NCBI GenBank assembly: GCA_949878745.1
Contig: CATLBH010000007.1
Coordinates: 276-64,275 of the forward strand
Reading direction: 5' to 3'
DNA: 64,000 bases
DNA from: an uncultured Ruminiclostridium sp.
Lineage (GTDB): Bacteria; Bacillota; Clostridia; Oscillospirales; Ruminococcaceae
In this document: positions 6,109-54,834 of the stretch, in pieces
Layout of the letters: every line of letters begins with the position of its first letter
Numbering within the stretch: position 1 is the stretch's first letter
The notes under the pieces: generated by a model
What the model was told of the DNA's origin: nothing
Seen by the model: the letters and a program-made list of their open reading frames with translations, nothing else
Databases searched by the model: none
Made by a program: the position numbers and the translations under genes

Positions 6109-6125
6109 ATATACGCTCCTTGCAC

Positions 6126-6902: not shown

Positions 6903-6917
6903 CGCTTTTTCCTCCTT

Positions 6918-35363: not shown

Positions 35364-35391
35364 TTGACAATCGCAAAAAAAATGGTATAAT
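35364..35391 (+). promoter_or_regulatory. sigmaA promoter upstream of the tRNA-Thr array
   Basis: TTGACA-16 nt-TATAAT with extended TG. Confidence 0.7.
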
Positions 35392-35494
35392 ATTGTTGTG
35401 GGTTTTGTGGGGAACAATTTGTCGGACAGTGATATTGTACCACAAAATTTGGGTTATTGCAAGAGGAATGTGATTTTTATTTATAATTTAATAT

Positions 35495-35677
35495 GCTGGT
35501 GTAGCTCAGTCGGTAGAGCAGCGCATTCGTAATGCGCAGGTCGCGTGTACTTGATAAGGAGATGCGGCAGCGAACCGCAGGTCTTGCAAAATTTTTACAG
35601 TTCAATGGCGCGGATAGGGTGAACATTTAGTTCCCTATTCCGGAATGGCAGTTCGGTCTGCCGAGAAAATTAAATAT
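35495..35677 (+). repeat. Unit 1: tRNA-Thr(CGT) nt 1-49 plus ~134-nt tail
   Basis: 35495-35543 is identical to the full tRNA; no T-loop or 3' acceptor strand. Confidence 0.9.
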
Positions 35678-35860
35678 GCTGGTGTAGCTCAGTCGGTAGA
35701 GCAGCGCATTCGTAATGCGCAGGTCGGGGGTGCTCGATAAGGAGACGCGGTGGCAGATCGCTAGTCTTGCAAAATTTTTACAGTTCAATGGCGAGAACAT
35801 GGTGAAAATTTAGTCCCCCTATTCCGGAATGGCAGTTCAGTCTGCCGAAAAATTAAATAT
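35678..35860 (+). repeat. Unit 2: tRNA-Thr(CGT) nt 1-54 plus a homologous tail
   Basis: 35678-35731 is identical to the full tRNA; tail aligns with unit 1; period 183 bp. Confidence 0.9.
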
Positions 35861-35936
35861 GCTGGTGTAGCTCAGTCGGTAGAGCAGCGCATTCGTAATG
35901 CGCAGGTCGGGGGTTCGAGTCCGTTCACCAGCTCCA
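35861..35936 (+). tRNA. tRNA-Thr(CGT)
   Basis: GCTGGTG/CACCAGC acceptor, D-arm GCTC/GAGC, GCGCA-TTCGTAA-TGCGC anticodon arm, TTCGAGT T-loop, encoded CCA; T-stem imperfect. Confidence 0.93.
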
Positions 35937-35977: not shown

Positions 35978-36075
35978 TATATTGATGTGTCTATAATGAA
36001 TCGAGAACAATCCCAATACATATATAATGTGCTCTTATGATTCAATGACTTCGTCAAAACTACGAGGAATCAATC

Positions 36076-37362
36076 ATGTCATCAGATAATGCACAGTGTA
36101 ACTACAATTTTATAGATTTATTTGCAGGAGCAGGCGGTTTGTCAGAGGGATTTCTTCAAGCAGGATTTAAACCTGTTGCTCATGTTGAAATGAATGAATT
36201 TGCAGCCAAAACACTTGAAACTAGAAGTGCATACTATTTTTTAAAAAGTACTGATAGACTCAGCATATATAAAAATTATTTGTCTGGCAAAATATCTCGC
36301 GACGAGTTTATAAAACATATTCCTGCTTCAATAATTAAAACTATAATTAATGAAACAATGTCGGATAAAACTTTGCCGGATATTTTTAAGATTATAGATG
36401 GAATAATGAAAATCAAAGGTATCTCTAAAATAGATGTCATCGTGGGCGGTCCTCCCTGTCAAGCGTATTCACTTGTAGGGAGAGCTCAAAGCAGTCATAT
36501 GGATATTCCGATGGAGGAAGACCCGCGTAATTATTTATATAAGTTATATGCAAGGTTCTTAAAACGCTATCAGCCTCGTATGTTCGTTTTTGAGAATGTC
36601 ACGGGAATCGAATCTGCCAATGGCGGAGCAACTTGGAAGAACATTCAGAAATACTTGAAACGTGTTGGATATGAAATTGAGTGCAGAGAACAGAATGCTT
36701 ATACATTTGGCGTTCTCCAAAACAGACGCCGGATGATCATTGTAGGATGGTTAAAGAAAAGCGGTCTGAAATACCCGGATTTTCTTGAAATCAAAACAAA
36801 TGCTATTGTTAATGATCTCTTTGCCGACCTGCCAGAACTGCATCCCGGTGAGAGTTCCAATAAATACGCAAAATCGAAAGCCAGCAGTTATGTAACAGAA
36901 TCAGGAATACGGACAAAGGATGACATTTTAACACTTCACAATTGTCGTCCGAATTTGGAACGCGATATACAGATATACAGACGCGCGGTTGAACTGTGGA
37001 ATGACGGTCATAAACGTCTCAATTATAATGATCTCCCAGACGAATTGAAAACGCATAAGAATAGGCACTCTTTTACGGACAGGTTTAAGGTTGTTGAGGG
37101 GGATGAATCGTGTTGCCACACCATACTGGCGCATCTATCAAAGGATGGACATTATTTTATCCATCCTGACATTGAACAGAACCGTTCCATCACCGTTCGG
37201 GAGGCGGCGAGAATCCAATCCTTCCCAGATAGCTATTTCTTTGAAGGATCGCGCACCTCGCAGTTTGTGCAGATAGGAAATGCTGTACCTCCGATGATGG
37301 CTAAAGGAATTGCGATGGGGATTTTCGAACAGTTGTACAAAGGAGATTCAAATGGGAAGTAA
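36076..37362 (+). CDS. DNA (cytosine-5) methyltransferase
   Basis: DLFAGAGG, GGPPCQ, FENV, QNRRR, REAARIQSFP, QIGNAVPP. Confidence 0.95.
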   Translation: MSSDNAQCNYNFIDLFAGAGGLSEGFLQAGFKPVAHVEMNEFAAKTLETRSAYYFLKSTDRLSIYKNYLSGKISRDEFIKHIPASIIKTIINETMSDKTLPDIFKIIDGIMKIKGISKIDVIVGGPPCQAYSLVGRAQSSHMDIPMEEDPRNYLYKLYARFLKRYQPRMFVFENVTGIESANGGATWKNIQKYLKRVGYEIECREQNAYTFGVLQNRRRMIIVGWLKKSGLKYPDFLEIKTNAIVNDLFADLPELHPGESSNKYAKSKASSYVTESGIRTKDDILTLHNCRPNLERDIQIYRRAVELWNDGHKRLNYNDLPDELKTHKNRHSFTDRFKVVEGDESCCHTILAHLSKDGHYFIHPDIEQNRSITVREAARIQSFPDSYFFEGSRTSQFVQIGNAVPPMMAKGIAMGIFEQLYKGDSNGK

Positions 37363-39970
37363 CCTGCTGCTTGAACAATTCAGCAGATATAAAAAGCTGG
37401 AACTTGAGGTCTCTCCGTTCCACTTCCTTTTGGATGCCAACATAGAGATAAATCCGCATCAGATCAATGCGTTTTGTGCTGCTATTCAAGCATTAAAAAC
37501 CGGCGGAATTATATTGGCAGATGAGGTTGGACTTGGAAAAACCATTGAAGCTGGGCTTGTTCTGAAATATGTGCTTGAATTGGGGGCAAAAAAAGTATTG
37601 ATTGCTCTTCCAGCGTCCTTGCGAAAACAGTGGGAACTAGAACTTGAGGATAAATTCGGCTTAAAGTCAATAATTCTTGACCGGCTTACGGTAGAAAAAG
37701 ATAGCTCTGACTGTCGCAAAAGGCTCACAGATAATAAGTCTGCCAGAATCGTGCTTACTTCTTATGACTACTCATCCAAGCTGATGAAACGGTTCCCAGA
37801 GGTCAAGTGGGATTTCATTATCATTGATGAGGCACACAACCTCAGAAATGTATTTCATGGAACTAAACGGGCAAAGAATTTGTACGAGCTGTCAAAAGGC
37901 ATACCGAAGATTCTGCTGACCGCTACGCCGCTTCAGAATTCGCTGACTGACCTTCACGGACTTGTTTCCTTTATTGACCAGCGAATTTTCGGAAGTGAGA
38001 AAGTTTTCAATAAGCGTTACATCGAATGTCAGGATTACTCCGATTTAAAGCGGGAGTTGTCACCGGTTCTTTATCGAACACTCCGCAAGGATGTAGCTAA
38101 ATATATGAACTTCAAAAAGAGAACCTGCAAAACGGTGGATTTTACCCTTTCGCATGATGAGATAGAGTTGTACCAACGGGTAAACGATTTCTTGAAGCGG
38201 GAACTACTGTATTCTATTCCGACCTCTAACCGTGGGCTAATCATTCTTGTCATCAGAAAACTGCTTGCATCTTCAAGTTTTGCACTGATTGAGACCTTTG
38301 AGATATTGAAGAAGAGACTTGAGAAGTTGTACGAAGGCAGCAGGACAGCAAACGCACAGGAGGGCTTTGATCTCTTCTGGAGCTATGTCGAAGATGAAAT
38401 AGATGAGTCGGGCTTTGAAAAGACCGAGGATGAGGATACTATTGTTCAGAAACAATTCATTCAAGCTGAACTTGATGAGGTAAATATCATCATTGATGTG
38501 GCAAAGCGCATCAAAACGAACGCAAAAATCAACGCACTGAAGACCGCCATACAGATTGCTTTCGACTATCAGCAGGAACAAAGTATACCGCAGAAGGTCG
38601 TGATCTTCACAGAGTCAAAGCGCACCCAGAAGTACATAGCCAATGAACTACGTAAGACGGGATTTGAGGATGAAGATATTCTTCTCTTCAACGGCGATTT
38701 TAACGATGCCATGACAAAGGAGATTTACAGGACATGGCAAGTTAAAAACTTTGGAAAGGTGAACTACGGACGCAGTGTGGAATATAAGCACGCCATTGTG
38801 GACTATTTCCGGAACAATGCAAAAATTCTAATTTGCACGGATGCTGGTTCTGAAGGTTTGAATTTGCAGTTCTGCAGCACGGTCATCAACTATGATCTTC
38901 CGTGGAATCCGATGAAAATTGAGCAACGCATTGGTCGTTGCCATCGCTACGGTCAGGAACATGAGGTGGTCGCTATAAATCTGCTGAACACACAGAATGC
39001 TGCCGATCAGCGAGTTTACGATATTCTTTCAAAAAAGTTTGAGCTGTTTGAGGGTGTCTTTGGAGCATCGGATATTGCACTCGGCGCATTAGAGTCCGGC
39101 TCCAGCTTTGAAAAAATGGTGCTGCAGATTTATCAGACCTGCAACACCACGGGGGAGTTCAAAAAGGCTTTTGATAAACTGGATCGGAAATTGAACGCAA
39201 AACGGGATAAGAAAGCAAGAGAGCTGCGTTCTCTACTGCTTACCGAAAGCAGTAGTGCTAAAGGACAGGCTCTTGAAGAAACAAAAGCAGACATTGCCAA
39301 ATATCTGCGTGATGTGGAATATTGGAATGCCTTTAACGAGCCAGAGGCAGATGGAAGAATTCACTATTGGAAGGTTGATAATTGGGGGGAACAAATTCTT
39401 GGATCGCATGGGGTTCTTTTTATTGGTGCGTTCTGCGACTCCTCAAAGTTGCTGTTTCCTGTACTACTACTTTGCGATGAAAGCGGCGATTACATTGATT
39501 TTGACGAGTCAGATTTGATTCCTGCTCTTGAGAAGATTGACGATATGGATGTGTGTTATTTCACGCCTACCGAATCGGAAATAAAACTGTATCACAATAT
39601 TTATGATAGCCTAAATGCAGAGATGCTAAAAAAGTATCAAGAACAATTGGTGCCTATTAAAGCATACAACAAACGAAAAGTTGAAAATTGGGAGCGCATT
39701 CAAATGGAGCAGCTGATTGTGACATACCAAGATATAGAGGCTGAAATCGGCGTAATAAAAGAACAGGAACGAGCTTCGGATAACTTTTATGAGAAGATAG
39801 ACATACGGAAAAAGATCGTCGAGAAATCCAAGGCACTTGAAGAATTCCAAGCATCTTTTCATGAAAAAAGTGCCGAATTTAAGAACGAAAGCGAACGAGA
39901 AATCGCTGAATTCGATAAACAGTTCGATATCAATCCGATTCTGTGGATTAATATTGTTCTGAAGTTTTAG
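37352..39970 (+). CDS. SNF2-family helicase (DrmD-like); probable start MGSN
   Basis: ILADEVGLGKT, IIDEAH, LTATP, DAGSEGLNLQ, PWNPMKIEQRIGR. Confidence 0.9.
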   Translation: MGSNLLLEQFSRYKKLELEVSPFHFLLDANIEINPHQINAFCAAIQALKTGGIILADEVGLGKTIEAGLVLKYVLELGAKKVLIALPASLRKQWELELEDKFGLKSIILDRLTVEKDSSDCRKRLTDNKSARIVLTSYDYSSKLMKRFPEVKWDFIIIDEAHNLRNVFHGTKRAKNLYELSKGIPKILLTATPLQNSLTDLHGLVSFIDQRIFGSEKVFNKRYIECQDYSDLKRELSPVLYRTLRKDVAKYMNFKKRTCKTVDFTLSHDEIELYQRVNDFLKRELLYSIPTSNRGLIILVIRKLLASSSFALIETFEILKKRLEKLYEGSRTANAQEGFDLFWSYVEDEIDESGFEKTEDEDTIVQKQFIQAELDEVNIIIDVAKRIKTNAKINALKTAIQIAFDYQQEQSIPQKVVIFTESKRTQKYIANELRKTGFEDEDILLFNGDFNDAMTKEIYRTWQVKNFGKVNYGRSVEYKHAIVDYFRNNAKILICTDAGSEGLNLQFCSTVINYDLPWNPMKIEQRIGRCHRYGQEHEVVAINLLNTQNAADQRVYDILSKKFELFEGVFGASDIALGALESGSSFEKMVLQIYQTCNTTGEFKKAFDKLDRKLNAKRDKKARELRSLLLTESSSAKGQALEETKADIAKYLRDVEYWNAFNEPEADGRIHYWKVDNWGEQILGSHGVLFIGAFCDSSKLLFPVLLLCDESGDYIDFDESDLIPALEKIDDMDVCYFTPTESEIKLYHNIYDSLNAEMLKKYQEQLVPIKAYNKRKVENWERIQMEQLIVTYQDIEAEIGVIKEQERASDNFYEKIDIRKKIVEKSKALEEFQASFHEKSAEFKNESEREIAEFDKQFDINPILWINIVLKF

Positions 39971-39981
39971 GAGAGATTATT

Positions 39982-41484
39982 ATGCAGAAGACAGGAAGAT
40001 TGGAATTAACATGGGTTGGCAAATATGATGATAAGGTTGTCGAGCCGAGAATTCTACTGGAGGATAAAAGCAAGTCTTACGGTGATCCAGCAAGTGAAAA
40101 TATGCTTATTCATGGGGATAACTTAATTGCACTGAGAGCGTTAGAAGCTGATTTTTCAGAACGTATTAAGTGCGTATTTATCGATCCTCCATATAACACA
40201 GGAAATGCTTTTGATAAATATGATGACGGATTAGAGCATTCGATATGGTTGGATTTAATGTATCGACGCTTTAACTCGTTATACGCTTTACTAAAACAGG
40301 ACGGAATATTATTTGTAAGCTTGGACGAGCGGGAACATGCTTACGCAAAAGTTTTGTTGGACAGCATTTTTGGAAGAGAAAACTTCATTGGAGATATAAT
40401 CTGGCAAAAACGCAAAGGCGGAGGTAATGATTCACGCTATATAGCACTTGATCATGATTACATTCTTGTTTATGCAAAAGATGCCAGTAAGGAGCAACAC
40501 CCAAAGCAATGGCTTACATCACAATCAGAGGCATATTTAAAGCGATACAAAGAAATCGATGAAAACGGGAAAAGATATTACTGGGATACCGTTGCAAGGA
40601 ACGGATTACAAAGTCCAATACTGGTTTCAATAAAGTGCCCTGATGGTACGATGTTATCCATTAACTCTCAAATGGGTCAGCAAACAATCGAAGAGGGATT
40701 AGAGACAGGGATGGTAAGACTATCTAAATCTAAAAACGGGTGGACACTACATCATCGAGTATATATGAAAGAAGGACAAGTACAGAGATCTATACTCAAT
40801 GATGTTGGAACTAATAAAGACGCAGCCGATGAAATGGAACTTTTATTCGGAAGTAAGAAAGCATTTCCGTACCCCAAGCCAGAAAGTCTGATTGCAAGAC
40901 TTCTTGAACTTGCAACAGAGCAAGGAGATCTTGTCTTGGATTCATTTTTAGGCTCAGGAACTACAGCAGCTGTTGCTCATAAAATGAAACGAAAGTGGAT
41001 TGGAATTGAAATGGGTGATCATGCATACACTCACTGCAAGTTAAGGTTAGATAAGGTTGTTAATGGATCAGATAACTGTGGTGTTACATCAAGCCTGAAT
41101 TGGCAAGGTGGCGGTGGATACCACTTCTATGAATTGGCTCCGAGTCTTCTCGTGAAGAATGACAAGCTGCCGATCTATCAGATCAATCCATCCTACACCT
41201 TTGAGATGCTCTGTGAGGCAATCTGTAAGATTGAGGGATTCCGCTATAAGCCGCAGGATGTGTTCCACGGCTATTCTTCGGAAAAACGTTTTATTCACAT
41301 CACTACTGAGTTCATAAACGCCGGATATATAAAATCGCTGTCCGCGAGGCTTGCCGAAGGTCAGTCTCTTCTGATTTACGGCACAAAGATACAGTCAGAC
41401 ATGGTCTTGCCTGACAACATCGAAGTCAAGAAAATTCCGAAAGATCTTCTTGAAAAATGCGATTTTGAAAGCGAGGTGCAGTAA
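39982..41484 (+). CDS. mod: Type III restriction-modification methyltransferase Mod (beta-class N6-adenine)
   Basis: LIHGDNL, FIDPPYNTG before DSFLGSGTT, YPKPE. Confidence 0.9.
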   Translation: MQKTGRLELTWVGKYDDKVVEPRILLEDKSKSYGDPASENMLIHGDNLIALRALEADFSERIKCVFIDPPYNTGNAFDKYDDGLEHSIWLDLMYRRFNSLYALLKQDGILFVSLDEREHAYAKVLLDSIFGRENFIGDIIWQKRKGGGNDSRYIALDHDYILVYAKDASKEQHPKQWLTSQSEAYLKRYKEIDENGKRYYWDTVARNGLQSPILVSIKCPDGTMLSINSQMGQQTIEEGLETGMVRLSKSKNGWTLHHRVYMKEGQVQRSILNDVGTNKDAADEMELLFGSKKAFPYPKPESLIARLLELATEQGDLVLDSFLGSGTTAAVAHKMKRKWIGIEMGDHAYTHCKLRLDKVVNGSDNCGVTSSLNWQGGGGYHFYELAPSLLVKNDKLPIYQINPSYTFEMLCEAICKIEGFRYKPQDVFHGYSSEKRFIHITTEFINAGYIKSLSARLAEGQSLLIYGTKIQSDMVLPDNIEVKKIPKDLLEKCDFESEVQ

Positions 41485-44136
41485 ATGTCAGAGATAGTAA
41501 ACAATATCAAATATGCAATGAGCCTGAGAACTCCGCAGGAGGAGGCTCTGTCTTACCTCGACGCAATCAGTTCGCATTGTGATTACAAGAAAGACAGCAA
41601 GGATGTTATTGAGGCCGTCGCATCGAAATATTGTGAGAAACAGCGCAAGGTTAAAGCTAGGTTCGACTTCCCGTCCTTCTGCTTTGCTATGGCAACCGGC
41701 ATCGGCAAAACTCGTCTGATGGGAGCCTGTATCTACCATCTGTACAAAAAGAAGGGCTATAAGCACTTCTTCATTCTTGCGCCTGGAAATACGATTTATG
41801 ATAAATTGCGTAAAGAGTCCAATCCGAACCATCCGAAGTACATCTTTAAAGGGCTTGAAGCTGAAATGGGCAGACCGAAGGTGTATGATGGCGAAAATTA
41901 CGATACCTATCCCGTGAAGTTTGAGCAGATGTCTCTCCGTATCGAGAAGACCTCGGAGATTCAGCTTTTCATATTCAATATCGGAAAAATCTTCAACAGC
42001 AAGACTGACACGCAGTTCAATTTCCACAAGTTCAAGGAGACGCTGGGCGCTTCCTTTGCTGATGTACTGGCGCAGTTTGACGATCTCGTAATCTGCATGG
42101 ATGAGGCACATCGCTATTACGCTCCGGCTTCAATGAAGGCAATCAACTATCTGAAGCCCGTCCTCGGATTGGAGTTTACAGCCACGCCGAAGACCACATC
42201 AAACGTAATCTATGCCTATGACCTGGCTCGTGGCGCTGTCGAGGGTTATCTGAAAATTCCTGTCGTGATGGGACGTTCCAACATGGCTGGCTATAACCAG
42301 GACGATATTGAGGAGATGAAAATCCGTGACGGCCTTACGCTCCATGAGCATCGCAAGGCTGTACTTCGCGAGTATTGCAGTGAAAATGACCTTGACTACG
42401 TTAAGCCGATTGTTCTTGTGGCCTGCAAGGATACAGACCACGCAAAGAAAATCCGTGCGCTGATTGACAGTGATGATTTTCAAGGTGGAAAGTATAAGGG
42501 CAAGGTTATAGAAATACATTCAAAGCAGACCGGCGAGGAGTCGGAAGAAAACATCCGTCTTTTGCTCTCTATAGAGAGTGCTTCAAACCCGGTCGAGATT
42601 GTTTTGCACGTTTATAAGCTGAAGGAAGGCTGGGACGTAAATAATCTTTTTACGATCATTCCTCTCAACGCGGCAAAGAGCGATATCCTCGCTATGCAGA
42701 CTATTGGTCGTGGTTTAAGACTTCCGTTCGGAGAACAGACCGGCAACGAAGACTTGAATTCTCTTGATATCGTTGCACATGACCACTACAGAGAACTCGT
42801 GGATGAAATTAAGAGCAATGACATCTTCCGTTATCGTGATCTTGATAAAGCAGCGGTAGAACCGTCGGAATCGGTAGGAGTATCTGCTACCGTAGACGAT
42901 GGTCAGCTTTCTCTGCTGGATTTTGCGATTACCGCATCCGGCGTGAAGTCATTTGCCGAGGTCAGCAATCCGAAGACGCAGCTTGAGATTTATCAGGAAT
43001 ATGTAAAGAACTTTATGGCTGCGCAGAAGAAAGACAAGAACGAAGACCCAGGACAGATGACTCTTTTTGACCTTCATCCTGAAATGTTTTCCGGCGATTC
43101 TACTGAAACTGATACATCTGCAAAGGAACAGCCGCAGGTGCCGTCCGGCGGTAAATCCGGCAAACAGCCTCTTACCAAGGATGAGTTTGTAAAGGCGGTA
43201 ACGGAGTATTCCGCAAAGGCTATCTCTGTACCGAAAATTCTCGTTCAGACCACATCCGAGGTGAAGTTTAGCCGTTTTGAGGTAAAGCGCACCATCGCTG
43301 ACTTTGAGGTGGCTATGGCCAAGATTGAGCGTTTTGATGCTATCAATCAGCAGCTTCTTTCTGTCGTGGATGCGCAGATTCTTGAAGTTAATGATGCCAT
43401 GAATACGCTTGCTTGTATGTTACTCGACTCCATCAGCGAGTTGTCTTATGATGACGCGGATTTTGTTATTGACGTGGTTGAGCAGTATTTAAGTCAGATA
43501 CCCGGTGATGAGGAAAACAAGAGAAGAATCGTTCGGCGCTACGCATCCCTGATTGTGGCTGATATCCGCAAGCAGATTTATGAGCATATGGACAGAAAAA
43601 CGCAGGATGTCCACATCATTCAGAAAGACCTTATTCTGTTCCGTAAGTTCGTAAAGAACGTCAAGGATGACGGAAAGGTCAAGTACGATAAGCCGTTCTC
43701 TGACAAGAGCAATATCAAGAAGTATCTTTTTACCGGCTATAAGAAGTCTTATTACCCGGCGAATGCGTTTGATAGTGATACGGAGCGTCTGTTCTCTATT
43801 ATTTTGGAAGAGGACCCGGATGTTATCCGTTGGATCAAACCGCCGCTTAATCAGCTGGGTTTATTCTGGAAAGCCGGTCAGCAGTATAATCCTGATTTTC
43901 TCGTAGAAACAACTGCCGGAAAATTCATGGTCGAGGTTAAGGCTTTGAATGAAATGACTTCGGAAGAAGTCGTTTCAAAGGCGAGAGAAGGCATAAAGTG
44001 GTGCCGTTTTGCTTCGACAGCAGACCCGGATCATAAGACGTGGGAGTATAAACTGATTTCAGATGACAACATTCATCTCGGAAACACCTGTAAATATACG
44101 CTCAGTACGGCTCATGCCGTGAAGGAGGATGCATAA
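41485..44136 (+). CDS. res: Type III restriction endonuclease Res
   Basis: MATGIGKT, MDEAHRY, LKEGWDV, QTIGRGLR; C-terminal YNPDFLV..MVEVK nuclease motif. Confidence 0.88.
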   Translation: MSEIVNNIKYAMSLRTPQEEALSYLDAISSHCDYKKDSKDVIEAVASKYCEKQRKVKARFDFPSFCFAMATGIGKTRLMGACIYHLYKKKGYKHFFILAPGNTIYDKLRKESNPNHPKYIFKGLEAEMGRPKVYDGENYDTYPVKFEQMSLRIEKTSEIQLFIFNIGKIFNSKTDTQFNFHKFKETLGASFADVLAQFDDLVICMDEAHRYYAPASMKAINYLKPVLGLEFTATPKTTSNVIYAYDLARGAVEGYLKIPVVMGRSNMAGYNQDDIEEMKIRDGLTLHEHRKAVLREYCSENDLDYVKPIVLVACKDTDHAKKIRALIDSDDFQGGKYKGKVIEIHSKQTGEESEENIRLLLSIESASNPVEIVLHVYKLKEGWDVNNLFTIIPLNAAKSDILAMQTIGRGLRLPFGEQTGNEDLNSLDIVAHDHYRELVDEIKSNDIFRYRDLDKAAVEPSESVGVSATVDDGQLSLLDFAITASGVKSFAEVSNPKTQLEIYQEYVKNFMAAQKKDKNEDPGQMTLFDLHPEMFSGDSTETDTSAKEQPQVPSGGKSGKQPLTKDEFVKAVTEYSAKAISVPKILVQTTSEVKFSRFEVKRTIADFEVAMAKIERFDAINQQLLSVVDAQILEVNDAMNTLACMLLDSISELSYDDADFVIDVVEQYLSQIPGDEENKRRIVRRYASLIVADIRKQIYEHMDRKTQDVHIIQKDLILFRKFVKNVKDDGKVKYDKPFSDKSNIKKYLFTGYKKSYYPANAFDSDTERLFSIILEEDPDVIRWIKPPLNQLGLFWKAGQQYNPDFLVETTAGKFMVEVKALNEMTSEEVVSKAREGIKWCRFASTADPDHKTWEYKLISDDNIHLGNTCKYTLSTAHAVKEDA

Positions 44137-47100
44137 TGGCTGACAGATTTAAGTATTCAGAGGTCAGGCAGAAAATCATCGATGCCATAAGAACTGACCT
44201 TATCGGGCCCAGAGAGAAGGAAGAGGTTCTTGAAGAGAATCCTCGCTATGCCTATCTCGTGGGTATGCTTGATATCCAAAACGATGATGAAGATTATTCT
44301 GGTGCCGGAGAGCAGGAAGTCGATGCTGATATGGCATTTGAGGATGGTGAGGACTTTACTGCCGGTGAAGATGATGACAACGAGCCAACTTCCACCACAC
44401 ATTTTCAGCTGCCCTCGTCTATCGGTATTAGTTTCTATATTCAAAGTGATACCGAGAGCATCAACTTGGATGTGACATGGGGAGACTATGTGAAGTCTTC
44501 TGAAAAATATACTGGCAAGGACGAAAAAGAGCATAGCCGTGCCATTTATACACGCCAGCCGATGGAAGAAACGGTTCATGTTCAGTTTAAGGATTTCACA
44601 CGAACGAAGGATTACCAGCTTGTTTGTGATTCCAATGTCCATGTTCACGTGTCCCGCATTCCTCTAAAGGGCGGCTATTCTCTTGTAACGGCGTACGTCA
44701 TTAACAAGAGAAAAAATCCTGCCAACAGTGCGGAAGCCATCATGTTCCAAGTTGAAATCAAGGCATATGCAGAGGATGGCTCTGCTGAGTTTATCGCCGA
44801 GCATATTTGCAGGGAGATACTCGCTTCCGATGAGTTTTATTTTGAACAGCGCCCGATTATGGGACGAGGACGCGGCTGTGCGGCGGTGTGGGATACCCCT
44901 GTCGATGGCAGAACTACATATGTGAAATCAGCGTTTATACCCGAATATGAATTTCCGGGTGTCAGCGCCGCATTGGATGGTTTTGACAGATATTTCTTTT
45001 CTACATTTACCATGTCGGTAAAATCGAAGAAGGCAGAAACCATCGGCAAACTTAATACTCTGGCGGAATCCTACGAAAAGTGGATCAATTCTACGCTTCT
45101 CGGAAACGCAAGGATGAACAATCCTGATTTTAAGGATAAGATCGGTAACAAAGTCATTGACCGTTGCCAAGATGCTCTGAAACGTATACGTGAAGGCATT
45201 AGCATTATCGAGAATGACGACATCTCGTTTGAGGCTTTCTGCTTTATGAACCGTGTAATCTTCTTGCAGAACAGCATCAAAGGATATGCAAAGAAGCACG
45301 GAACTGGAACAGATTGCAATTTCCAGGATTTCATTAATCCGAAGAATCCTGATAATAACTTTGGATGGCGTCCATTCCAGATTGCTTTTATTCTGATGAA
45401 CCTCGCGGGAATCGTTGATCCGAGACATATAGACCGAGAGGTCGTTGACCTGCTATACTTCCCGACTGGCGGTGGTAAGACTGAGGCCTATCTTGGTCTT
45501 ATGGCATTTGTTATTGCCAACAGGCGACTCAGAGCGTCTGATGTAGATAAGTACAATCGGGATGGCGGCGTGACCGTCATGCTTCGATACACCCTCCGCT
45601 TGCTTACCACACAGCAGAGGGACCGTATTACAAAAATGGTGCTTGCGGCAGAAATGATCAGGCGGCAGGCATATCCTCAGTTTGGTAAAGAGCCTATCAG
45701 TATAGGCTTCTGGGTAGGAGGCGGAGTAACGCCTAACAAGTTTGATGAGTTTATTGAAAAGGCTGATAATCCGCAAGCGGCGAGAAGTGCAAGAAACCAT
45801 GTCTATAAACAGCTACTTACTTGCCCGTTCTGCGGAAAGCCTCTCAAAGAAGAGAACTTTAACATTGATACTGACAAGAAGTCCATCGAGATTTTCTGCT
45901 CGGATCGGGATTGCCAGTTCTATAGATACAAAAATGACAGGATACCGATCCCAGTTTATCTTGTCGATGAAGAAATATATGCCAAGTGTCCGACCATCAT
46001 TTTGTCGACCGTTGATAAGTTTGCTCGTCTGCCGTGGGATGTAAATACGAATGCTCTTTTTGGCAGAGTGGACAGAAAGTGCAGCCGTGATGGTTATGTC
46101 GCAATTGGAGCGGAACACGGACGTCATAATAAAACGGCTTCTTTGCCGGCATCCACGATGGTCAACATCAGACCGTTCCTGCCGCCGGAACTGATCATTC
46201 AAGACGAGTTGCATCTTATCACGGGACCTCTTGGTACGGTTTACGGTGCCTATGAAACGATTATCGAAGATATGTGTATTCACGATGGCATCAAGCCGAA
46301 GTATGTCGTTTCAACGGCAACAATCAAAAATGCGGAGGCACAGACCAGATGCCTTTACGCAAGAAAGAATACGACGCAGTTCCCGCCGAACGGTTTTGAA
46401 ATTGGGGACAGTTTCTTTATCAGAGAGATTTCCGTAGATGATGACCCGTTCAGAAAATATGTGGGTGTCTGCGCACCAGGTCAGTCTGTTAAGACGGCTT
46501 TACTTCGCGTTTATGCTATCATTCTGCAGGCTGCCTATACTTACTCCCTGCAAAAGGAGTACAAGGATGTGATTGATCCGTACTATTCTCTGGTCGGGTA
46601 TTTCAACAGTATCCGAGAACTTGGTGGTGCTGTCAGACTTCTGCAAGACGACATTCCAAAGAGGATTTATCGCATCAAGAATAAATACGGCTTGGATAAA
46701 CAGCGGTATCTGAACCACAACGTGGAGATTACTTCCCGTATGTCGTCGTATAAGATACCGGAAAAGCTGAACCAACTTGAAACGACCTGTGCTTCAAAAG
46801 ACTGCCTGGATACGGCTATCGCTACAAATATGATCGCCGTAGGTATGGACGTTGATCGCCTTGGACTGATGGTTGTGACAGGTCAGCCGAAACAGAACTC
46901 GGAATATATCCAGGCAACAAGCCGTATTGGTCGTGCATTCCCTGGACTTGTGGTTACGCTCTACAATGCATATCGTCCTCGTGACTTGTCGCATTACGAG
47001 AATTTTACCGGCTACCATTCGCAGCTTTATCGCTTTGTCGAAGGAACGACGGCGACACCGTTCTCTGCCAGAGCAAGAGACCGTGTCATGCACGCGCTGA

Positions 47101-47459
47101 TAATATCTGCAGTACGGCTTAACTTCCCGAATATGGCTAATAATCCAGATGCGGCGGCCATCGGTTCATTAACTTCAGACCAGCTTGACTCAGTGAAGAA
47201 GCTGATAATCGACCGCCTCAATATCATCAAGCCGTCAGCAAGAGCAGATGCAGAGGAAGAAGTAGAGCGCTTCATTGACTGGTGGAAATTGCAAGCGGCG
47301 CAGACGAAACCGCTGCGGTATTACGTTGTCGGAACTGAACGCTATAACAGGTTGATGAATCCGTATGACCAGCCGCACGATGAGAACGAAAAAGCTACAC
47401 TTCGTTCCATGCGTGAGGTCGAGAGTTCGGCGAATATGTTCTATTACACGGAGGATTGA
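44136..47459 (+). CDS. drmA: DISARM helicase DrmA
   Basis: FPTGGGKTEAY, YTLRLLT.QQ, IQDELHLI.GPLG, AVGMDV.RLGLM, QATSRIGR; followed by DUF1998 and PLD genes. Confidence 0.88.
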   Translation: MADRFKYSEVRQKIIDAIRTDLIGPREKEEVLEENPRYAYLVGMLDIQNDDEDYSGAGEQEVDADMAFEDGEDFTAGEDDDNEPTSTTHFQLPSSIGISFYIQSDTESINLDVTWGDYVKSSEKYTGKDEKEHSRAIYTRQPMEETVHVQFKDFTRTKDYQLVCDSNVHVHVSRIPLKGGYSLVTAYVINKRKNPANSAEAIMFQVEIKAYAEDGSAEFIAEHICREILASDEFYFEQRPIMGRGRGCAAVWDTPVDGRTTYVKSAFIPEYEFPGVSAALDGFDRYFFSTFTMSVKSKKAETIGKLNTLAESYEKWINSTLLGNARMNNPDFKDKIGNKVIDRCQDALKRIREGISIIENDDISFEAFCFMNRVIFLQNSIKGYAKKHGTGTDCNFQDFINPKNPDNNFGWRPFQIAFILMNLAGIVDPRHIDREVVDLLYFPTGGGKTEAYLGLMAFVIANRRLRASDVDKYNRDGGVTVMLRYTLRLLTTQQRDRITKMVLAAEMIRRQAYPQFGKEPISIGFWVGGGVTPNKFDEFIEKADNPQAARSARNHVYKQLLTCPFCGKPLKEENFNIDTDKKSIEIFCSDRDCQFYRYKNDRIPIPVYLVDEEIYAKCPTIILSTVDKFARLPWDVNTNALFGRVDRKCSRDGYVAIGAEHGRHNKTASLPASTMVNIRPFLPPELIIQDELHLITGPLGTVYGAYETIIEDMCIHDGIKPKYVVSTATIKNAEAQTRCLYARKNTTQFPPNGFEIGDSFFIREISVDDDPFRKYVGVCAPGQSVKTALLRVYAIILQAAYTYSLQKEYKDVIDPYYSLVGYFNSIRELGGAVRLLQDDIPKRIYRIKNKYGLDKQRYLNHNVEITSRMSSYKIPEKLNQLETTCASKDCLDTAIATNMIAVGMDVDRLGLMVVTGQPKQNSEYIQATSRIGRAFPGLVVTLYNAYRPRDLSHYENFTGYHSQLYRFVEGTTATPFSARARDRVMHALIISAVRLNFPNMANNPDAAAIGSLTSDQLDSVKKLIIDRLNIIKPSARADAEEEVERFIDWWKLQAAQTKPLRYYVVGTERYNRLMNPYDQPHDENEKATLRSMREVESSANMFYYTED

Positions 47460-47460
47460 C

Positions 47461-49209
47461 ATGGCTTTTGATAATAATAAACTTGGAGAGTTACGTCCAA
47501 ACCAGATCATAACCACCTTTGGTCCCGGCTCGGTAGTCGATGCGGTAAAGGACTCGGTTACGATTCTTGACATCTCCTACTGGAAACAGAAGGGACAAAA
47601 AATAATCGACGGCAGACTTGCATCATATTTAGGTGTCGATTGTTTCTATATGCCCCGGACAAGTTTTTCGGGCGATGTGCCAGTTGTGACCTTTCCGTAC
47701 TGGCACGTATGCTCTAATTTAAAATGCGGAAAGCTGTTTGATGCCAGAAAGTATTTTGATTTAGATAAGTATCTCAAGTATGGCGTCACTTGTCCTGAGT
47801 GTCATCGTCCTGCCTATCCGTCCCGTTTCATCACGATCTGCGAGGACGGTCATATGTCTGACTTCCCTTGGAAGTGGTGGGTGCACAGAGGCGAGTCCGA
47901 TTGCAACGGTACCTTAAAAATGTATTCAACAGGCAACACTTCCACTCTTGCGGATATGTGGGTAGAATGCTCCTGCGGTGCGAAACGCAGTATGAGCGGA
48001 GCAACACAGCGAGATAATTTTGACGGCGTTGCCTGCCCCGGCCATCATCCGTTCAGACCGAATGTGAAAAACCATAAGTGCAACAAGCCCATCATTCCTT
48101 CACAGCGTGGTGCGTCTAATGTTTACTTCGCTGTGAGCCGGAGTGCAATCTCTATTCCGCCGTGGATCAATCCACTGTATAACTTAATCGATGAGCATCT
48201 TCGTGATATCGAGCTTGCAAAGCAACTTATGGGAGATGATGGAATAACCAAAATATATGAAATGTATTTCTCTGCTTATTCGAGGGATGAGTTTGATGAG
48301 GCACTTGAGCGTCGCATGAGCAACATCAAGGAGTTCACTGAAATCAAGCAGATGGAATACAATGCTATTACTCACCACAATGACCCTGCATATGAGTCAA
48401 ACAAGAAGCACTTCAAGGCTGAAGAGGATGCGTTACCCGGATATTTGCAGAAATATTTCAGCCGCATAATCCGAGTGACCAGACTTAGAGAGGTTCGTGT
48501 TCTTCTGGGATTTACAAGAGTCGATGCTCCCGATCCGGATGCAGATGAGCAGCCGAATGTTGTGGCGTTAAGCAAGGGTAAGCAGGAACGCTGGCTACCT
48601 GCGGCGGAAGTAAATGGAGAAGGCATCTTCATAGAGTTTAACAAAGATACGCTTGCGGCGTGGCTCAATTCACCGGCAGTGAAAGGCTTATCAGAAAAGT
48701 ATTCTGACTCCTACAGGGAGTTTTGCGAGTCAAAAGGCTGGACGATTACGGTCGTAAAAAATGCGGTTTATGTTCTTATGCACACCTTTGCTCACTTTAT
48801 GATTAAGCAGATGTCTATGTCATCGGGCTATTCTTCTTCGGCTATTAGAGAAAGAATCTATTTTGGAGATAAAATGGTCGGCATTCTGTTATACACAGGA
48901 AGTTCCGATAAGGAAGGCTCACTTGGTGGTCTGGTTGAACTTGGAAATATCGATCAGATGACGAATCTCATGAGAGACGCTTTCCAAGAGGCTCTTGTTT
49001 GTACGAATGACCCGGAATGCATGAGTAATTTGCCTGCTGGCAAAAACTCAAACGGAGCTGCCTGCCATTCATGCTGCATGATATCTGAAACGGCGTGCGA
49101 GAATGGAAATAGAATGCTTGACCGTGGGCTTGTTGTTCCTATTCCGGGACGCGAGGAATGCTCATATTTTAAGGAATTAGTAGGTGACTTATGCCAGGTG
49201 GAAATCTAA
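47461..49209 (+). CDS. drmB: DISARM DrmB (DUF1998 domain); probable start MAFD at 47461
   Basis: LRPNQIITTFGPGS, PSRF..ICEDGH, MHTFAH, GSLGGLV, C..DP.C...ACHSC....E..C metal motif. Confidence 0.9.
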   Translation: MAFDNNKLGELRPNQIITTFGPGSVVDAVKDSVTILDISYWKQKGQKIIDGRLASYLGVDCFYMPRTSFSGDVPVVTFPYWHVCSNLKCGKLFDARKYFDLDKYLKYGVTCPECHRPAYPSRFITICEDGHMSDFPWKWWVHRGESDCNGTLKMYSTGNTSTLADMWVECSCGAKRSMSGATQRDNFDGVACPGHHPFRPNVKNHKCNKPIIPSQRGASNVYFAVSRSAISIPPWINPLYNLIDEHLRDIELAKQLMGDDGITKIYEMYFSAYSRDEFDEALERRMSNIKEFTEIKQMEYNAITHHNDPAYESNKKHFKAEEDALPGYLQKYFSRIIRVTRLREVRVLLGFTRVDAPDPDADEQPNVVALSKGKQERWLPAAEVNGEGIFIEFNKDTLAAWLNSPAVKGLSEKYSDSYREFCESKGWTITVVKNAVYVLMHTFAHFMIKQMSMSSGYSSSAIRERIYFGDKMVGILLYTGSSDKEGSLGGLVELGNIDQMTNLMRDAFQEALVCTNDPECMSNLPAGKNSNGAACHSCCMISETACENGNRMLDRGLVVPIPGREECSYFKELVGDLCQVEI

Positions 49210-49850
49210 ACAAAGAGATATTCTTGAATACGGTCAAAAGCGATGTGGCAAATGGAACGACTAATGCCGCATCTATGCTAAAGCGAAGCTGCCCGGAATT
49301 ATCCGATGCACATTGTGAGGATATCATAGGAACGGTTCTTGGTGCTATGAATATGTCCGAAGCGGACAAGGTGTCGCTTGTGGTCACAGCACCTCCATCT
49401 TTTTCTATCAATGCGAGAACTACAATGAATGTGGTTCAGTCCATGATAAACGGAGCAGAAAAGAATATCTTGATTACGGGATACTCCTTATCCTCATACT
49501 TTTCAGAATTGGTCGATACAATCGTTCTTAAAAGCCAGCGAGGTGTATTCGTGAAGTTCTTTGTGAATGACATTGATAAGCAGCCAGGATTTGATAAGAT
49601 ACTGCGCTATAAAGGACGATTCCTGAAAATCTATAACTATCACCAGGAAGACGATAAGATGGCCGCGCTTCATGCAAAGGTAATCTCGGTTGATCAGCAA
49701 CAGACGCTAATAACTTCGGCAAACTTATCCTATCATGGGCAGCAAGGAAATATTGAATTTGGTACATTTATAGAATCTTCTAAAATTGCCTATCAAGTTG
49801 ATAATATATTCACAAAACTGCTTTTTGCAAACCTATTTCATGAGGTATAA
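49191..49850 (+). CDS. drmC: DISARM DrmC phospholipase-D-family nuclease
   Basis: HAKVISVD (HKD motif), TSANLS, NIEFG. Confidence 0.85.
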   Translation: MPGGNLNKEIFLNTVKSDVANGTTNAASMLKRSCPELSDAHCEDIIGTVLGAMNMSEADKVSLVVTAPPSFSINARTTMNVVQSMINGAEKNILITGYSLSSYFSELVDTIVLKSQRGVFVKFFVNDIDKQPGFDKILRYKGRFLKIYNYHQEDDKMAALHAKVISVDQQQTLITSANLSYHGQQGNIEFGTFIESSKIAYQVDNIFTKLLFANLFHEV

Positions 49851-49989: not shown

Positions 49990-50787
49990 ATGTCAGACCT
50001 ATTTAATGAAGAAGAAATAACCTTGGACACGCTCAGAGCATACTTCCACGAAAATGACTTCTCTACCCTGCCCGTGAAAGACCCGTCCGAATACACCGAG
50101 AAGCAGCTGAAACTCTATAACAGGGTGCTACGGATCGTGAACGCAGAGTGGAAATCGATCTCGAAGTCATTAGGTCTGACACACCCGCAGGACTGCTACT
50201 CAAAGGATTTCCCTCCCGAACTTATCCGAGACCGTGTTCAGCGAATAATCGCGGATAATGTTGTCAAGCTTTGCAACAATAAAAGAACATTTTGGAAAAT
50301 GCTTTGGCATTTTATTGTTCCGATGTTCTTGAAAAGGAAAAATAGCGATGAAGCGCTACACAATACAACGAACGCGCTTATGCAGACACTGGATATTGAG
50401 GGCTTATCAAAATCCGCGAGGGAGTTTTCGTGTGACGAGGACTTCAACCCGAATAAATCCATAAATTATCCTCGAATGGATCACATCAAAAAATGGAACC
50501 ACACTCGCGCAAAAATGAAAGTCGAATCCTTGGACGAAATATCAGAGCGTTCTCCGAACGGAGAACCGCCGCAGATTCCCGACAAAACAAATATCGAAAC
50601 CGCAGCGGACATACATATCCTTATCAAAAATCTGGTCGACAGCGCCTCCGAACAGGAGCGGGAGATCATCGACTTGCTGTCCGAGGGGTATACCCAAAGC
50701 GAGATCGCTGAACGACTTGGCGTTTCCCAGAGTACGATCTCGCGTAAAATCAAAAAATTCAAGAGTTTCTTATCAGCCGGCGTATGA
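49990..50787 (+). CDS. Protein with a C-terminal sigma70-region-4/LuxR-type HTH, copy 1
   Basis: SEQEREIIDLLSEGYTQSEIAERLGVSQSTISRKIKK; GGAGG RBS. Confidence 0.75.
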   Translation: MSDLFNEEEITLDTLRAYFHENDFSTLPVKDPSEYTEKQLKLYNRVLRIVNAEWKSISKSLGLTHPQDCYSKDFPPELIRDRVQRIIADNVVKLCNNKRTFWKMLWHFIVPMFLKRKNSDEALHNTTNALMQTLDIEGLSKSAREFSCDEDFNPNKSINYPRMDHIKKWNHTRAKMKVESLDEISERSPNGEPPQIPDKTNIETAADIHILIKNLVDSASEQEREIIDLLSEGYTQSEIAERLGVSQSTISRKIKKFKSFLSAGV

Positions 50788-50813
50788 TTTTGCATCGGCT
50801 GATTTCCTGTTTT

Positions 50814-52028
50814 TTACAGCCTGTCGCTCAGGAGAAAATCCGTCAAATGAATGATCTTTACGCCGTTGACATTGCCGCCCGCAAGTTCGTCGAGCGTCAC
50901 TACATACTTCGGGTAGTGATCCTTTATATCCAGAAGATTTCCTATCTCACGATCCGAATCCTCGGGAAGATTGCGGCACACCTGAACATACACCCTCTCA
51001 TCACGCCGTACAGCCACAAAGTCGATCTCCCGTGTGCTGAGCTTTCCGATATACACCTCATACCCTCGTCTCAGCAACTCAAAATAAACTATATTTTCAA
51101 GCATTGAAGCAATTGATTTAGGGTTAAATCCCATTATGCAGTATTTCAGCGACGCGTCGGCGAGGTAGAACTTCTCCTGCGTTTTCAAAACGGACTTTCC
51201 TTGCAGATCATAACGCTGACAGCGGTAGATCACAAACGCCTTTTCCAGCCATTCAAGATAATTGTAAACTGCCTCGACTGAAAGGGAGCGCCCCTCTCCT
51301 TTCAAAAATTTCACGATAGCGTTTGCGGAAAACGACTTTCCGACATTCTCAACAATATATTTTACCACACGATTGAACAGATCAATATTTGTTACATTGT
51401 GTCGTCTGGAAATATCGTTCGTGATTACAGAGGTATAAATTCCCTCTACTATCTGATATGCGGAACGGTCATCAAAATTCCCGAGTGCGACTATCGGGAA
51501 CCCGCCAGTCCGAATATATTCGTTCAGCAGTTCTTTTTCGGAACTCCCGCTTGACTTTTTGAAATCAAGATATTCGGCAAAGGACAGCGTGAACACGGGT
51601 ATCGAAATATATCTTCCGGTCAGATATGTTGAGATCTCGCTTGACATCAGCTTTGAATTTGATCCCGTGACATAAATATCGGTATTCTCGTTTTCGAGCA
51701 GACTGTTTACCGCCTTTTCCCAACCGTCGATCTCCTGAACCTCATCGAGCAAAATATAATACCGGTCTTTGTCGGCCATTTTCTCCTTGATCACATCGTG
51801 CATACCTCTGTCGGTCATATCGTCGTCCACATACTCGGAGGTATACCGTTCAAATATTATGTGATCTTCGGGAATGCCGCTGCTTTTCAGGTCATTGTGC
51901 AGCATTTCTAAAATCGTTGACTTTCCGCAGCGGCGAACGCCCGCCAATATCTTTACTAACGGGATGTCTCTGTACGTTTTCAGCATTTTCATATAATGCG
52001 GTCTGATAATCATATTATCACTCCTCAT
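50814..52028 (-). CDS. AAA_14 ATPase with DUF4143 domain, copy 1
   Basis: GVRRCGKS, LDEVQ, YVTGSN, LTGRY, ENIVY..L, EIDFV..VYVQV. Confidence 0.88.
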   Translation of the reverse strand: MRSDNMIIRPHYMKMLKTYRDIPLVKILAGVRRCGKSTILEMLHNDLKSSGIPEDHIIFERYTSEYVDDDMTDRGMHDVIKEKMADKDRYYILLDEVQEIDGWEKAVNSLLENENTDIYVTGSNSKLMSSEISTYLTGRYISIPVFTLSFAEYLDFKKSSGSSEKELLNEYIRTGGFPIVALGNFDDRSAYQIVEGIYTSVITNDISRRHNVTNIDLFNRVVKYIVENVGKSFSANAIVKFLKGEGRSLSVEAVYNYLEWLEKAFVIYRCQRYDLQGKSVLKTQEKFYLADASLKYCIMGFNPKSIASMLENIVYFELLRRGYEVYIGKLSTREIDFVAVRRDERVYVQVCRNLPEDSDREIGNLLDIKDHYPKYVVTLDELAGGNVNGVKIIHLTDFLLSDRL

Positions 52029-52121
52029 TACATATTATACCCAAAAACTTTTAAAATGTCAATTGTTTTTGCTGAAATTCCCTAAAAACTTATTATAATT
52101 TCAGCTTTTTTAATTTCCCGC

Positions 52122-52185
52122 TTGACTTTTTAAATTAAATGTGATACAATAAAATCAAATCACGATTTACTAAATCTAAATTAGA
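52122..52185 (+). promoter_or_regulatory. sigmaA promoter with downstream palindromic operator
   Basis: TTGACT-17 nt-TACAAT, then aaatcacgattt and atctaaattagat IRs; operator repeated near 56993-57025. Confidence 0.6.
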
Positions 52186-52202
52186 TGTTCAGGAGAGCTG
52201 TT

Positions 52203-53660: not shown

Positions 53661-53813
53661 AAGCGAACTTTGTGCAATCCTACAAACTTTAAAAATCCTA
53701 TTTTCGTGTGCATAAAACCATTTCCTTGTGTCGGTAGGTATATAGAGGGCAATCCCGTCGTTATTCGGCGGGATTTTGTTTTTGGAAAATTTATTTGACA
53801 GGAGGACAAGTTA

Positions 53814-54776: not shown

Positions 54777-54834
54777 ATAGCTATATAGTGATTGCATATG
54801 CAAATATATTTCAAATTGCTTGATAGGAGGACAA

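Follow-up and report, generated by a model that had tools for sequence, protein, structure and literature searches.

Composition of the seven-gene locus

We analysed a 64,000-nucleotide (nt) stretch of the genome of an uncultured Ruminiclostridium sp. (contig CATLBH010000007.1, positions 276 to 64,275), hereafter referred to as the window. It contains an operon in which the genes of a DISARM (restriction-modification-associated defence island system) locus enclose a complete type III restriction-modification (R-M) pair. The operon, drmMII-drmD-mod-res-drmA-drmB-drmC, consists of seven plus-strand open reading frames (ORFs) that occupy positions 36076-49850 with virtually no spacing (Table 1). 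An earlier, sequence-only reading of the window had described seven co-directional genes with junctions that overlap or are separated by at most 11 nt, and this description was borne out, as the extremes among the junctions are a 19-nt overlap and an 11-nt gap. In particular, drmMII and drmD overlap by 11 nt, drmD and mod are separated by 11 nt, mod and res abut with a gap of 0 nt, res and drmA overlap by 1 nt, drmA and drmB are 1 nt apart, and drmB and drmC overlap by 19 nt. For two genes, the start was revised on the basis of profile alignments, ribosome-binding sites and checks of the reading frame; the ATG of drmB (47461) is preceded by a GGAGGA ribosome-binding site. No strong plus-strand terminator was found within the seven-gene block.

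Families were assigned from PADLOC, Pfam and NCBIfam profile matches, and all seven ORFs were found to be full length with intact catalytic signatures. DrmMII matched the PADLOC model PDLC02649 over its full length (564 bits) and PF00145 (1.5e-57), and its FAGAG, PCQ and ENV motifs are conserved in all lineages described below. DrmD scored 1529 bits on PADLOC PDLC02619 and 1501 bits on NF038318 (DISARM_DrmD_b; cut-off 950), in contrast with 250 bits on the canonical DrmD model NF038317, which is below the cut-off of 610. It contains GLGKT and DEAH motifs and ends in a helical/coiled-coil tail of ~240 amino acids (aa). DrmA scored 1273 bits on NF038325 (DrmAS), matched PF00271 and carries GGGKT and DELH motifs. 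It aligned to residues 185-1303 of the Serratia DrmA structure 7s9v_A (1060 residues, E 2e-171) and lacks the first ~175 aa of that protein, with an acidic stretch at aa 31-90 aligned to the trigger loop. DrmB matched NF038324 (592 bits) and PF09369, and DrmC matched PADLOC PDLC02616 over its full length (320 bits) as well as PF13091, with the HxKxxxxD motif at aa 161.

The two remaining proteins form the type III pair. Mod matched the PADLOC MTase_III model PDLC03636 (478 bits) and PF01555, and its motifs run from DPPY (aa 68) through the recognition domain to FLGSG (aa 322), the target-recognition domain spanning approximately aa 170-297 (40490-40872). This beta-class order (DPPY, variable domain, FxGxG) is typical of type III Mods. 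Res matched the PADLOC REase_III model PDLC03648 (398 bits) and PF04851, and its GIGKT, DEAH and PDF...EVK motifs are conserved in all lineages; a weak match to EcoP15I Res (4zcf_C, 32.6 bits) includes the nuclease region. Both the motif order of Mod and the position of res immediately after mod agree with a type III R-M system.

Table 1. Coordinates of the operon genes and of two upstream features in the window.
Feature	Position	Strand	Description
drmMII	36076-37362	+	C5-cytosine DNA methyltransferase, 428 aa
drmD (DrmD_b type)	37352-39970	+	SNF2 ATPase, 872 aa
mod	39982-41484	+	beta-class N6/N4 type III DNA methyltransferase, 500 aa
res	41485-44136	+	type III restriction subunit, 883 aa; superfamily 2 (SF2) helicase + C-terminal PD-(D/E)xK nuclease
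drmA	44136-47459	+	DISARM helicase, 'short' type, 1107 aa
drmB	47461-49209	+	DUF1998/MZB protein, 582 aa
drmC	49191-49850	+	phospholipase D (PLD)-family nuclease, 219 aa
promoter-like site TCGAGA-16-TATAAT	36001-36028	+	upstream of drmMII; consensus scan, 10/12 positions, consensus match only
tRNA-Thr(CGT)	35861-35936	+	ARAGORN; 140 nt upstream of operon

Under the PADLOC definitions of DISARM, DrmMI is mandatory in type I and DrmE in type II (PMC9252829). At the present locus, the DISARM core is represented by DrmA, DrmB and DrmC, which are contiguous at 44136-49850, the SNF2 component of class 1 by a protein recognised by the DrmD_b model rather than the canonical one, and the class 2 component DrmMII by its PADLOC and PF00145 matches together with the PCQ and ENV motifs. 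This agrees with the sequence-only reading, which had noted features of both classes side by side and the absence of drmE. The DrmE and DrmMI models were not among the best matches of any of the seven proteins, no DrmE match was found in the neighbouring genes, and single-sequence searches of the rest of the genome, which is 99% complete, revealed no homologue of DrmE or DrmMI. The sole adenine-type methyltransferase is the 500-aa PF01555 Mod. Canonical DrmMI proteins, on the other hand, are 1361-1533 aa long, are of the Eco57I/MmeI type and match PF07669 and the PADLOC DrmMI models. We considered whether Mod could be a divergent DrmMI, and this was ruled out by the difference in family and by the lack of similarity between Mod and canonical DrmMI in BLASTP (E 2.5). 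The locus therefore fits neither PADLOC definition, as it has neither DrmMI nor DrmE.

Conservation, mobility and exchange of the cassette

The same seven-gene order was present in 21 of the 23 genomes with this DISARM clade, down to a DrmA identity of 47%. When one genome per GTDB species was scanned with DrmA, identities of 89-98% were obtained at 14 loci, which belong to Lachnospiraceae, Oscillospiraceae, Erysipelotrichales, Treponema and Spirochaetaceae, and 13 of these had exactly this order. Further cases of the cassette were revealed by the DrmD model in a phylum sample (2/401 genomes), by the DrmA model in a class sample (3/399 genomes) and by Res and DrmA in a Lachnospiraceae sample (7/351 genomes). 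Sub-lineages were distinguished by DrmA identity at 86% (G580), 73% (G971 and G982) and 47-52% (G091, G511, G875 and G1126), and the gene order was unchanged in every one of them. In the most distant lineage, all seven proteins had diverged from those of the window to a similar degree, with identities of 55% for DrmMII, 48% for DrmD, 52% for Mod, 60% for Res, 52% for DrmA, 59% for DrmB and 41% for DrmC. In the divergent lineage, where identities to the window span 41-63%, the start-stop overlap of res and drmA is kept, and Mod and Res keep their catalytic motifs across lineages that have diverged to ~50% identity.

Maximum-likelihood trees of DrmA, DrmD and Res, which were built from quick searches with small samples and midpoint roots, each placed the seven-gene loci in one clade (Shimodaira-Hasegawa-like approximate likelihood ratio support, SH-aLRT, 99-100), and the inner topology was identical among the three trees. 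The congruent clades and the shared topology indicate that the seven-gene loci share common descent and that the unit has been co-diverging since a single origin. The sequence-only reading had made its proposal depend on the order recurring elsewhere, and it does so; together, the conserved order and the congruent trees exclude a chance nesting of an R-M system within a DISARM operon.

Nucleotide homology among the cassettes extends from 14-20 nt before the ATG of drmMII to the stop codon of drmC, and the middle of mod is its only interruption. The flanks are unrelated: large serine recombinases, DUF2326, T5orf172 and Fic proteins were found elsewhere, and tRNA-Thr and other defence-type genes were found here. 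Homologous cassettes in unrelated surroundings show that the seven genes move as one unit, and the start of homology so close to drmMII indicates that the surrounding DNA provides the promoter. A search of public assemblies for DrmD homologues, which yielded only relatives at least 83% identical, gave more than 120 clusters when grouped at 90% identity, and NCBI names some of these 'DISARM system SNF2-like helicase DrmD'. This number of clusters indicates an actively spreading cassette. No close relatives were found on sequenced plasmids, where the best DrmA was 37% identical, but the same search brought to light the Bacillus cereus architecture described below.

Comparison of individual genes revealed mosaicism. 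DrmA, DrmB and Res of the window are 95-99% identical to those of three other loci (L001, L003 and L012), whereas DrmMII and DrmD are merely 87-91% identical to those of any other locus. At the nucleotide level, the left block (36076-40250; drmMII, drmD and the N-terminal part of mod) showed 75-81% identity to every other cassette and the right block (40900-49850; from the C-terminal part of mod to drmC) showed up to 90%. The cassette of the window is thus a recombinant with its breakpoint at the Mod recognition domain. This domain is also where the loci differ most from one another: aa 170-297 of Mod are 5-25% identical between most loci, compared with 70-97% for the rest of the protein and ~92% for its last 110 residues, and at least 10 recognition-domain types were present among the 14 loci, whose cassettes are otherwise 90-98% identical. 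Type III systems change specificity by recognition-domain exchange, and the number of types in so few loci indicates that the type III specificity is under diversifying exchange. Such exchange would not persist on a functionless passenger gene; the type III arm is under selection. Phase variation of mod through simple repeats was considered and rejected, as no simple-sequence repeats were found in the operon. In one further locus (L006), the mod gene (5808-7343) encodes FLGSA in place of FLGSG at motif I within an otherwise intact cassette, and the S-adenosylmethionine site of this protein may be weakened.

Departures from the common order were also observed. A Spirochaetaceae locus (L011) lacks mod-res and has instead an ORF of 188 aa (L011 4344-4910), the N-terminus of which corresponds to Mod aa 1-97 and the C-terminus to Res aa 778-883. 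This fusion ORF stops exactly at the start of drmA, as if translational coupling had been preserved; its DPPY motif is degraded to GPPY, and drmMII of the same locus is also frameshifted. L011 is a secondary in-frame deletion scar in which drmD and drmABC remained open. In another locus (L013), both mod and res contain frameshifts. A different outcome was found in G1022 (L090, G1022:C14, 660-14885), the DrmA of which is 79% identical and nested within the clade. Here, a 16-nt spacer separates drmD from drmA and there is no internal mod-res; directly upstream of drmMII, in the same orientation, lie genes for another type III Mod (PDLC03645, 695 aa) and for a 959-aa ResIII helicase with GSGKT and DEAH motifs and a C-terminal PDF motif, which had no PADLOC match at 1e-15. 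This arrangement is a non-orthologous displacement, in which the lost type III arm was re-acquired at the 5' end of the operon.

Another architecture was found on at least nine Bacillus cereus plasmids (for example, L083, NZ_AP022916.1 28632-42365), which carry the best plasmid relatives of DrmA (33% identity). Their gene order is DrmA, DrmB, a PLD+SNF2 fusion, DUF4391, a type III Mod and an EcoP15I-like Res, with the fusion assigned to PADLOC 'HKD+Snf2' (PDLC01075), Mod to PDLC03634 and Res to PDLC03647 (923 bits). DrmC and DrmD are effectively fused in these plasmids, and an m5C (5-methylcytosine) methyltransferase is absent. The B. cereus architecture is independent of the seven-gene form. 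Overall, three type III subfamilies are joined to DrmAB, PLD and SNF2 proteins in three gene orders. A DISARM-like locus of another composition is present on a Tsukamurella plasmid (L084, NZ_LR134452.1), in which an m5C methyltransferase, a hypothetical protein, a UvrD helicase, DrmA and DrmB are followed by a DEAD/DEAH helicase, a 1571-aa Eco57I-type methyltransferase and another DEAD/DEAH helicase.

Origin of the SNF2-Mod-Res block and interpretation of the operon

Ten further genomes of the phylum sample encoded an SNF2 protein that matched the DrmD_b model at 630-700 bits and was 43% identical over aa 26-620. Nine of these cases were evaluable, and in each the SNF2 gene lay directly upstream of a type III mod and, contig permitting, of res, without DrmABC; with three more free-standing loci in Lachnospiraceae, this SNF2-Mod-Res module was present in at least 12 of the genomes sampled. 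The window shows this succession too, with type III mod-res immediately following a DrmD_b-related SNF2 gene. Within the tree of SNF2 proteins, the DrmD_b clade was sister to the SNF2 proteins of these modules (support 98) and not to the canonical class 1 DrmD proteins (Microvirga, Oscillatoria and Planktothrix plasmids); in the canonical class 1 loci compared, DrmD is followed by a DrmMI of the Eco57I/MmeI type and of the size given above. Likewise, the sister group of the Res clade comprised Res proteins from SNF2-Mod-Res modules and from plain type III systems belonging to the same subfamily. No BLAST similarity was found between the DrmD_b tail (~240 aa) and the tails of the SNF2-Mod-Res proteins (~310 aa), but the notion that these tails are unrelated is countered by hhalign, which revealed a coiled-coil segment common to both (96% probability).

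As DrmD_b groups with the free-standing type III SNF2 genes, the exchanged unit is SNF2-Mod-Res. The sequence-only reading had placed a Mod with its own Res in the drmMI slot. The Mod-Res pair itself stands, although simple filling of a slot does not: judging from these relationships, the SNF2-Mod-Res module occupies the place of DrmD and DrmMI together, rather than a type III pair having been dropped into the DrmMI position. An SNF2-Mod-Res locus with two inserted genes was also observed (L037, G396:C1, 2846-15469); a 1279-aa protein without a family match is encoded between SNF2 and mod, and a 273-aa PADLOC PDC-S05 candidate is encoded between mod and res.

We interpret the locus as a single, horizontally mobile operon that belongs to a distinct DISARM clade and is functionally integrated with an SNF2-assisted type III module, and we assign this reading a probability of roughly 60%. 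Integration is favoured by the interleaved layout, the translational coupling, the co-divergence, the re-acquisition in G1022 and the independent B. cereus architecture. In particular, drmMII lies before drmD and drmABC lies after res, and the operon is not a simple juxtaposition of two operons. Type III R-M systems are marked by hemimethylation of an asymmetric site and by ATP-dependent cleavage that needs two inversely oriented unmodified sites. In the proposed mechanism, DrmD_b-Mod-Res would be the sensor and marking half that replaces DrmD and DrmMI of class 1. Host DNA would be marked by DrmMII (m5C) and by Mod (N6-methyladenine, m6A, on one strand of an asymmetric site), and the swappable recognition domain of Mod would set the m6A site. 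Mod-Res would then recognise unmarked incoming DNA, which the Res nuclease would cut in an ATP-dependent manner, and DrmD, as a DNA translocase, together with DrmAB and the PLD nuclease DrmC would finish the destruction of the same DNA or block its replication. Dual methylation and its coupling to restriction are suggested by the intact motifs and the co-evolution of the genes; any physical contact between the components and the hand-off of DNA from Res to DrmAB are likewise putative. Previous work found that 5'-overhang or single-stranded ends activate DrmAB and that methylated DNA lowers its ATPase activity (PMC9142583).

The same operon could instead encode two autonomous systems on one transcript, DrmD_b-Mod-Res and a minimal DISARM of DrmMII and DrmABC, which would act additively or synergistically and be mobilised together with no obligatory dependence. 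We regard this as possible but distinctly less probable than a single integrated operon. Several observations weigh in its favour and against integration. The SNF2-Mod-Res module is common in free-standing form, and the type III arm can therefore work without DrmABC. The losses in L011 and L013 indicate that the arm is dispensable, at least transiently, and that it can be lost as a pair with drmD and drmABC left open. Most loci come from metagenome-assembled genomes, and some of the frameshifts may therefore be assembly errors. The conservation of the cassette could reflect synergy and not one machine, and conserved synergistic arrays have been documented for Zorya-Druantia-ARMADA (bioRxiv 2025.09.15.676423). 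In the class 1 system of Serratia sp. SCBI, most single genes are dispensable and the action is partly methylation-independent (bioRxiv 2021.12.28.474362), which indicates that tight mechanistic coupling is not general in DISARM. Additionally, the gene-wise mosaicism of the window cassette shows that its parts are exchangeable.

On the other side, the R-M half interrupts the putative DISARM half, the overlap of res and drmA is retained from lineage to lineage, and the trees are congruent down to ~50% identity. Apart from the L011 scar, no DrmD_b-type DISARM was seen without a type III-like pair, and G1022 replaced its lost pair with a non-orthologous one. Moreover, DrmMII and DrmABC alone fit no described functional class, as class 2 needs DrmE.

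We also considered an ordinary class 1 DISARM with an extra DrmMII, in which Mod would serve as DrmMI and Res would be a passenger or a chance insertion. A class 1 system with an added DrmMII is known from Serratia sp. SCBI, and DrmMI methylates a non-palindromic site on one strand (bioRxiv 2021.12.28.474362), as Mod would; the DISARM models also call DrmD, DrmA, DrmB and DrmC at the present locus. However, the small PF01555 Mod has no detectable similarity to DrmMI, DrmD is below the canonical cut-off and has type III-linked SNF2 proteins as its sister group, the N-terminal ~175 aa are missing from DrmA, which forms its own clade, and the Res motifs are intact in all lineages, which together make this explanation very improbable. 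A decaying or non-functional relic island that is inactive in this host is equally hard to uphold, since the frameshifts seen in some relatives (L011, L013, L009 and L074) contrast with seven full-length ORFs, intact motifs and tightly coupled junctions in the window and with the more than 120 DrmD clusters.

DISARM is not known to possess a site-specific nuclease. The PLD nuclease of DISARM is dispensable, and its methyltransferases are only partly required. A widespread natural variant with a long-kept, complete type III Mod-Res pair offers a direct experimental handle on the cooperation between a methylation-reading restriction module and the DrmAB helicase. We tentatively propose, as an idea that is more speculative than integration itself, that DISARM of the class 1 kind is modular: an exchangeable sensor composed of SNF2 and an R-M component (DrmMI, or Mod-Res of at least three subfamilies) might be combined with a constant DrmAB-PLD effector. 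Res might then be the missing site-specific nuclease, its two-site cuts in unmodified DNA giving the ends on which DrmAB loads, and the system might be re-aimed by a swap of the recognition domain. If Res acts in this way, the operon would encode a two-stage machine that restricts and then unwinds and shreds the DNA.

In the immediate surroundings of the operon, the tRNA-Thr(CGT) gene is, from its position, the likely attachment point of an island bearing the cassette. The intact gene is preceded by two partial tRNA-Thr copies in a 183-bp tandem array (35485-35936 including the intact gene), and a perfect sigma-70-like promoter was found ahead of this array (35364-35391). Downstream of drmC (49990-55632), we found genes for two paralogous helix-turn-helix proteins (265 and 270 aa) and AAA_14/DUF4143, ATPase_2/DUF234 and AAA_25 genes, which are part of a neighbouring defence island.

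Comparison with known systems

To place the operon among described systems, we compared it with DISARM of both classes, with type III R-M systems and with BREX (bacteriophage exclusion) and ARMADA. The class 1 DISARM of Serratia sp. SCBI with its additional DrmMII, for which DrmAB structures are available (PDB 7S9V and 7S9W), was found to be similar in that an SNF2 DrmD, an N6-adenine methyltransferase for an asymmetric site, DrmMII, DrmA, DrmB and DrmC are encoded in one operon. It differs in several respects: a 500-aa type III Mod stands here in place of a type IIG/PglX-like DrmMI of ~1350 aa, a full Res is present, DrmD belongs to the DrmD_b family, and DrmA is of the 'short' type and falls in a separate clade. 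Another combination, DISARM with DrmD, DrmE and DrmMII, has been noted in Freyarchaeia (PMC11529989).

The class 2 DISARM of the Bacillus paralicheniformis type shares with the present locus DrmMII as an m5C self-mark and the 'short' DrmA family NF038325. The gene order of class 2 is DrmE-DrmA-DrmB-DrmC-DrmMII. In contrast, the operon described here has no DrmE, and its DrmA is merely 34% identical to that of class 2; in the DrmA tree, the class 2 sequences lie across the midpoint root from this clade, which is also separate from class 1. A class 2 example from the same bacterial class is L054 (G697:C55, 2766-12594). This class 2-like locus encodes DrmE, DrmA and DrmB, together with a DrmMII that carries a fused Vsr very-short-patch repair endonuclease domain, and a DrmC homologue was not detected there.

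The type III systems EcoP15I and EcoP1I (PDB 4ZCF) resemble the pair in the abutting mod-res order, the motif order of Mod, the motifs of Res and a recognition domain that varies among alleles, although the pair is flanked here by an SNF2 gene and DrmABC, with both of which it co-diverges. The free-standing SNF2-Mod-Res modules, found here in Bacillota genomes, have the same order, with identities of ~43% for the SNF2 core, ~45% for Mod and 31-34% for Res; they lack DrmMII and DrmABC, and their SNF2 proteins are 945-990 aa long with the ~310-aa tail mentioned above. In BREX and ARMADA, a module of a BrxHII/RapA-like SNF2 protein and a PglX adenine methyltransferase is likewise joined to a YprA-family helicase core (Bell et al. 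bioRxiv 2025.09.15.676423), but the methyltransferase is of another family, Res is absent, and the ARMADA helicases are on another branch of the YprA family.

The sequence-only reading had called the locus a distinct DISARM subtype. One part of this proposal, the hybrid of the two classes, is not new, since DrmD together with DrmMII was already known from Serratia sp. SCBI and Freyarchaeia. The other part, the type III arm, is the new component, and the architecture as a whole seems to be undescribed. As the reading had also supposed, the locus does not correspond to a catalogued subtype: neither PADLOC definition fits, and in full-text searches we found no paper that describes DISARM with a type III Mod-Res pair, although such loci could be listed in the supplement to Ofir et al. 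2018. A large survey of the YprA family mentions just 'many uncharacterized DISARM-like classes'. The existence of the NCBIfam DrmD_b model and of near-full-length PADLOC models indicates that these genes have already come to the attention of curators. Such loci are divided by current annotation tools into 'RM type III' and an incomplete or 'other' DISARM, and the counts of both in gut and rumen are therefore probably distorted. The arrangement is common in gut bacteria and fits neither published class of DISARM.

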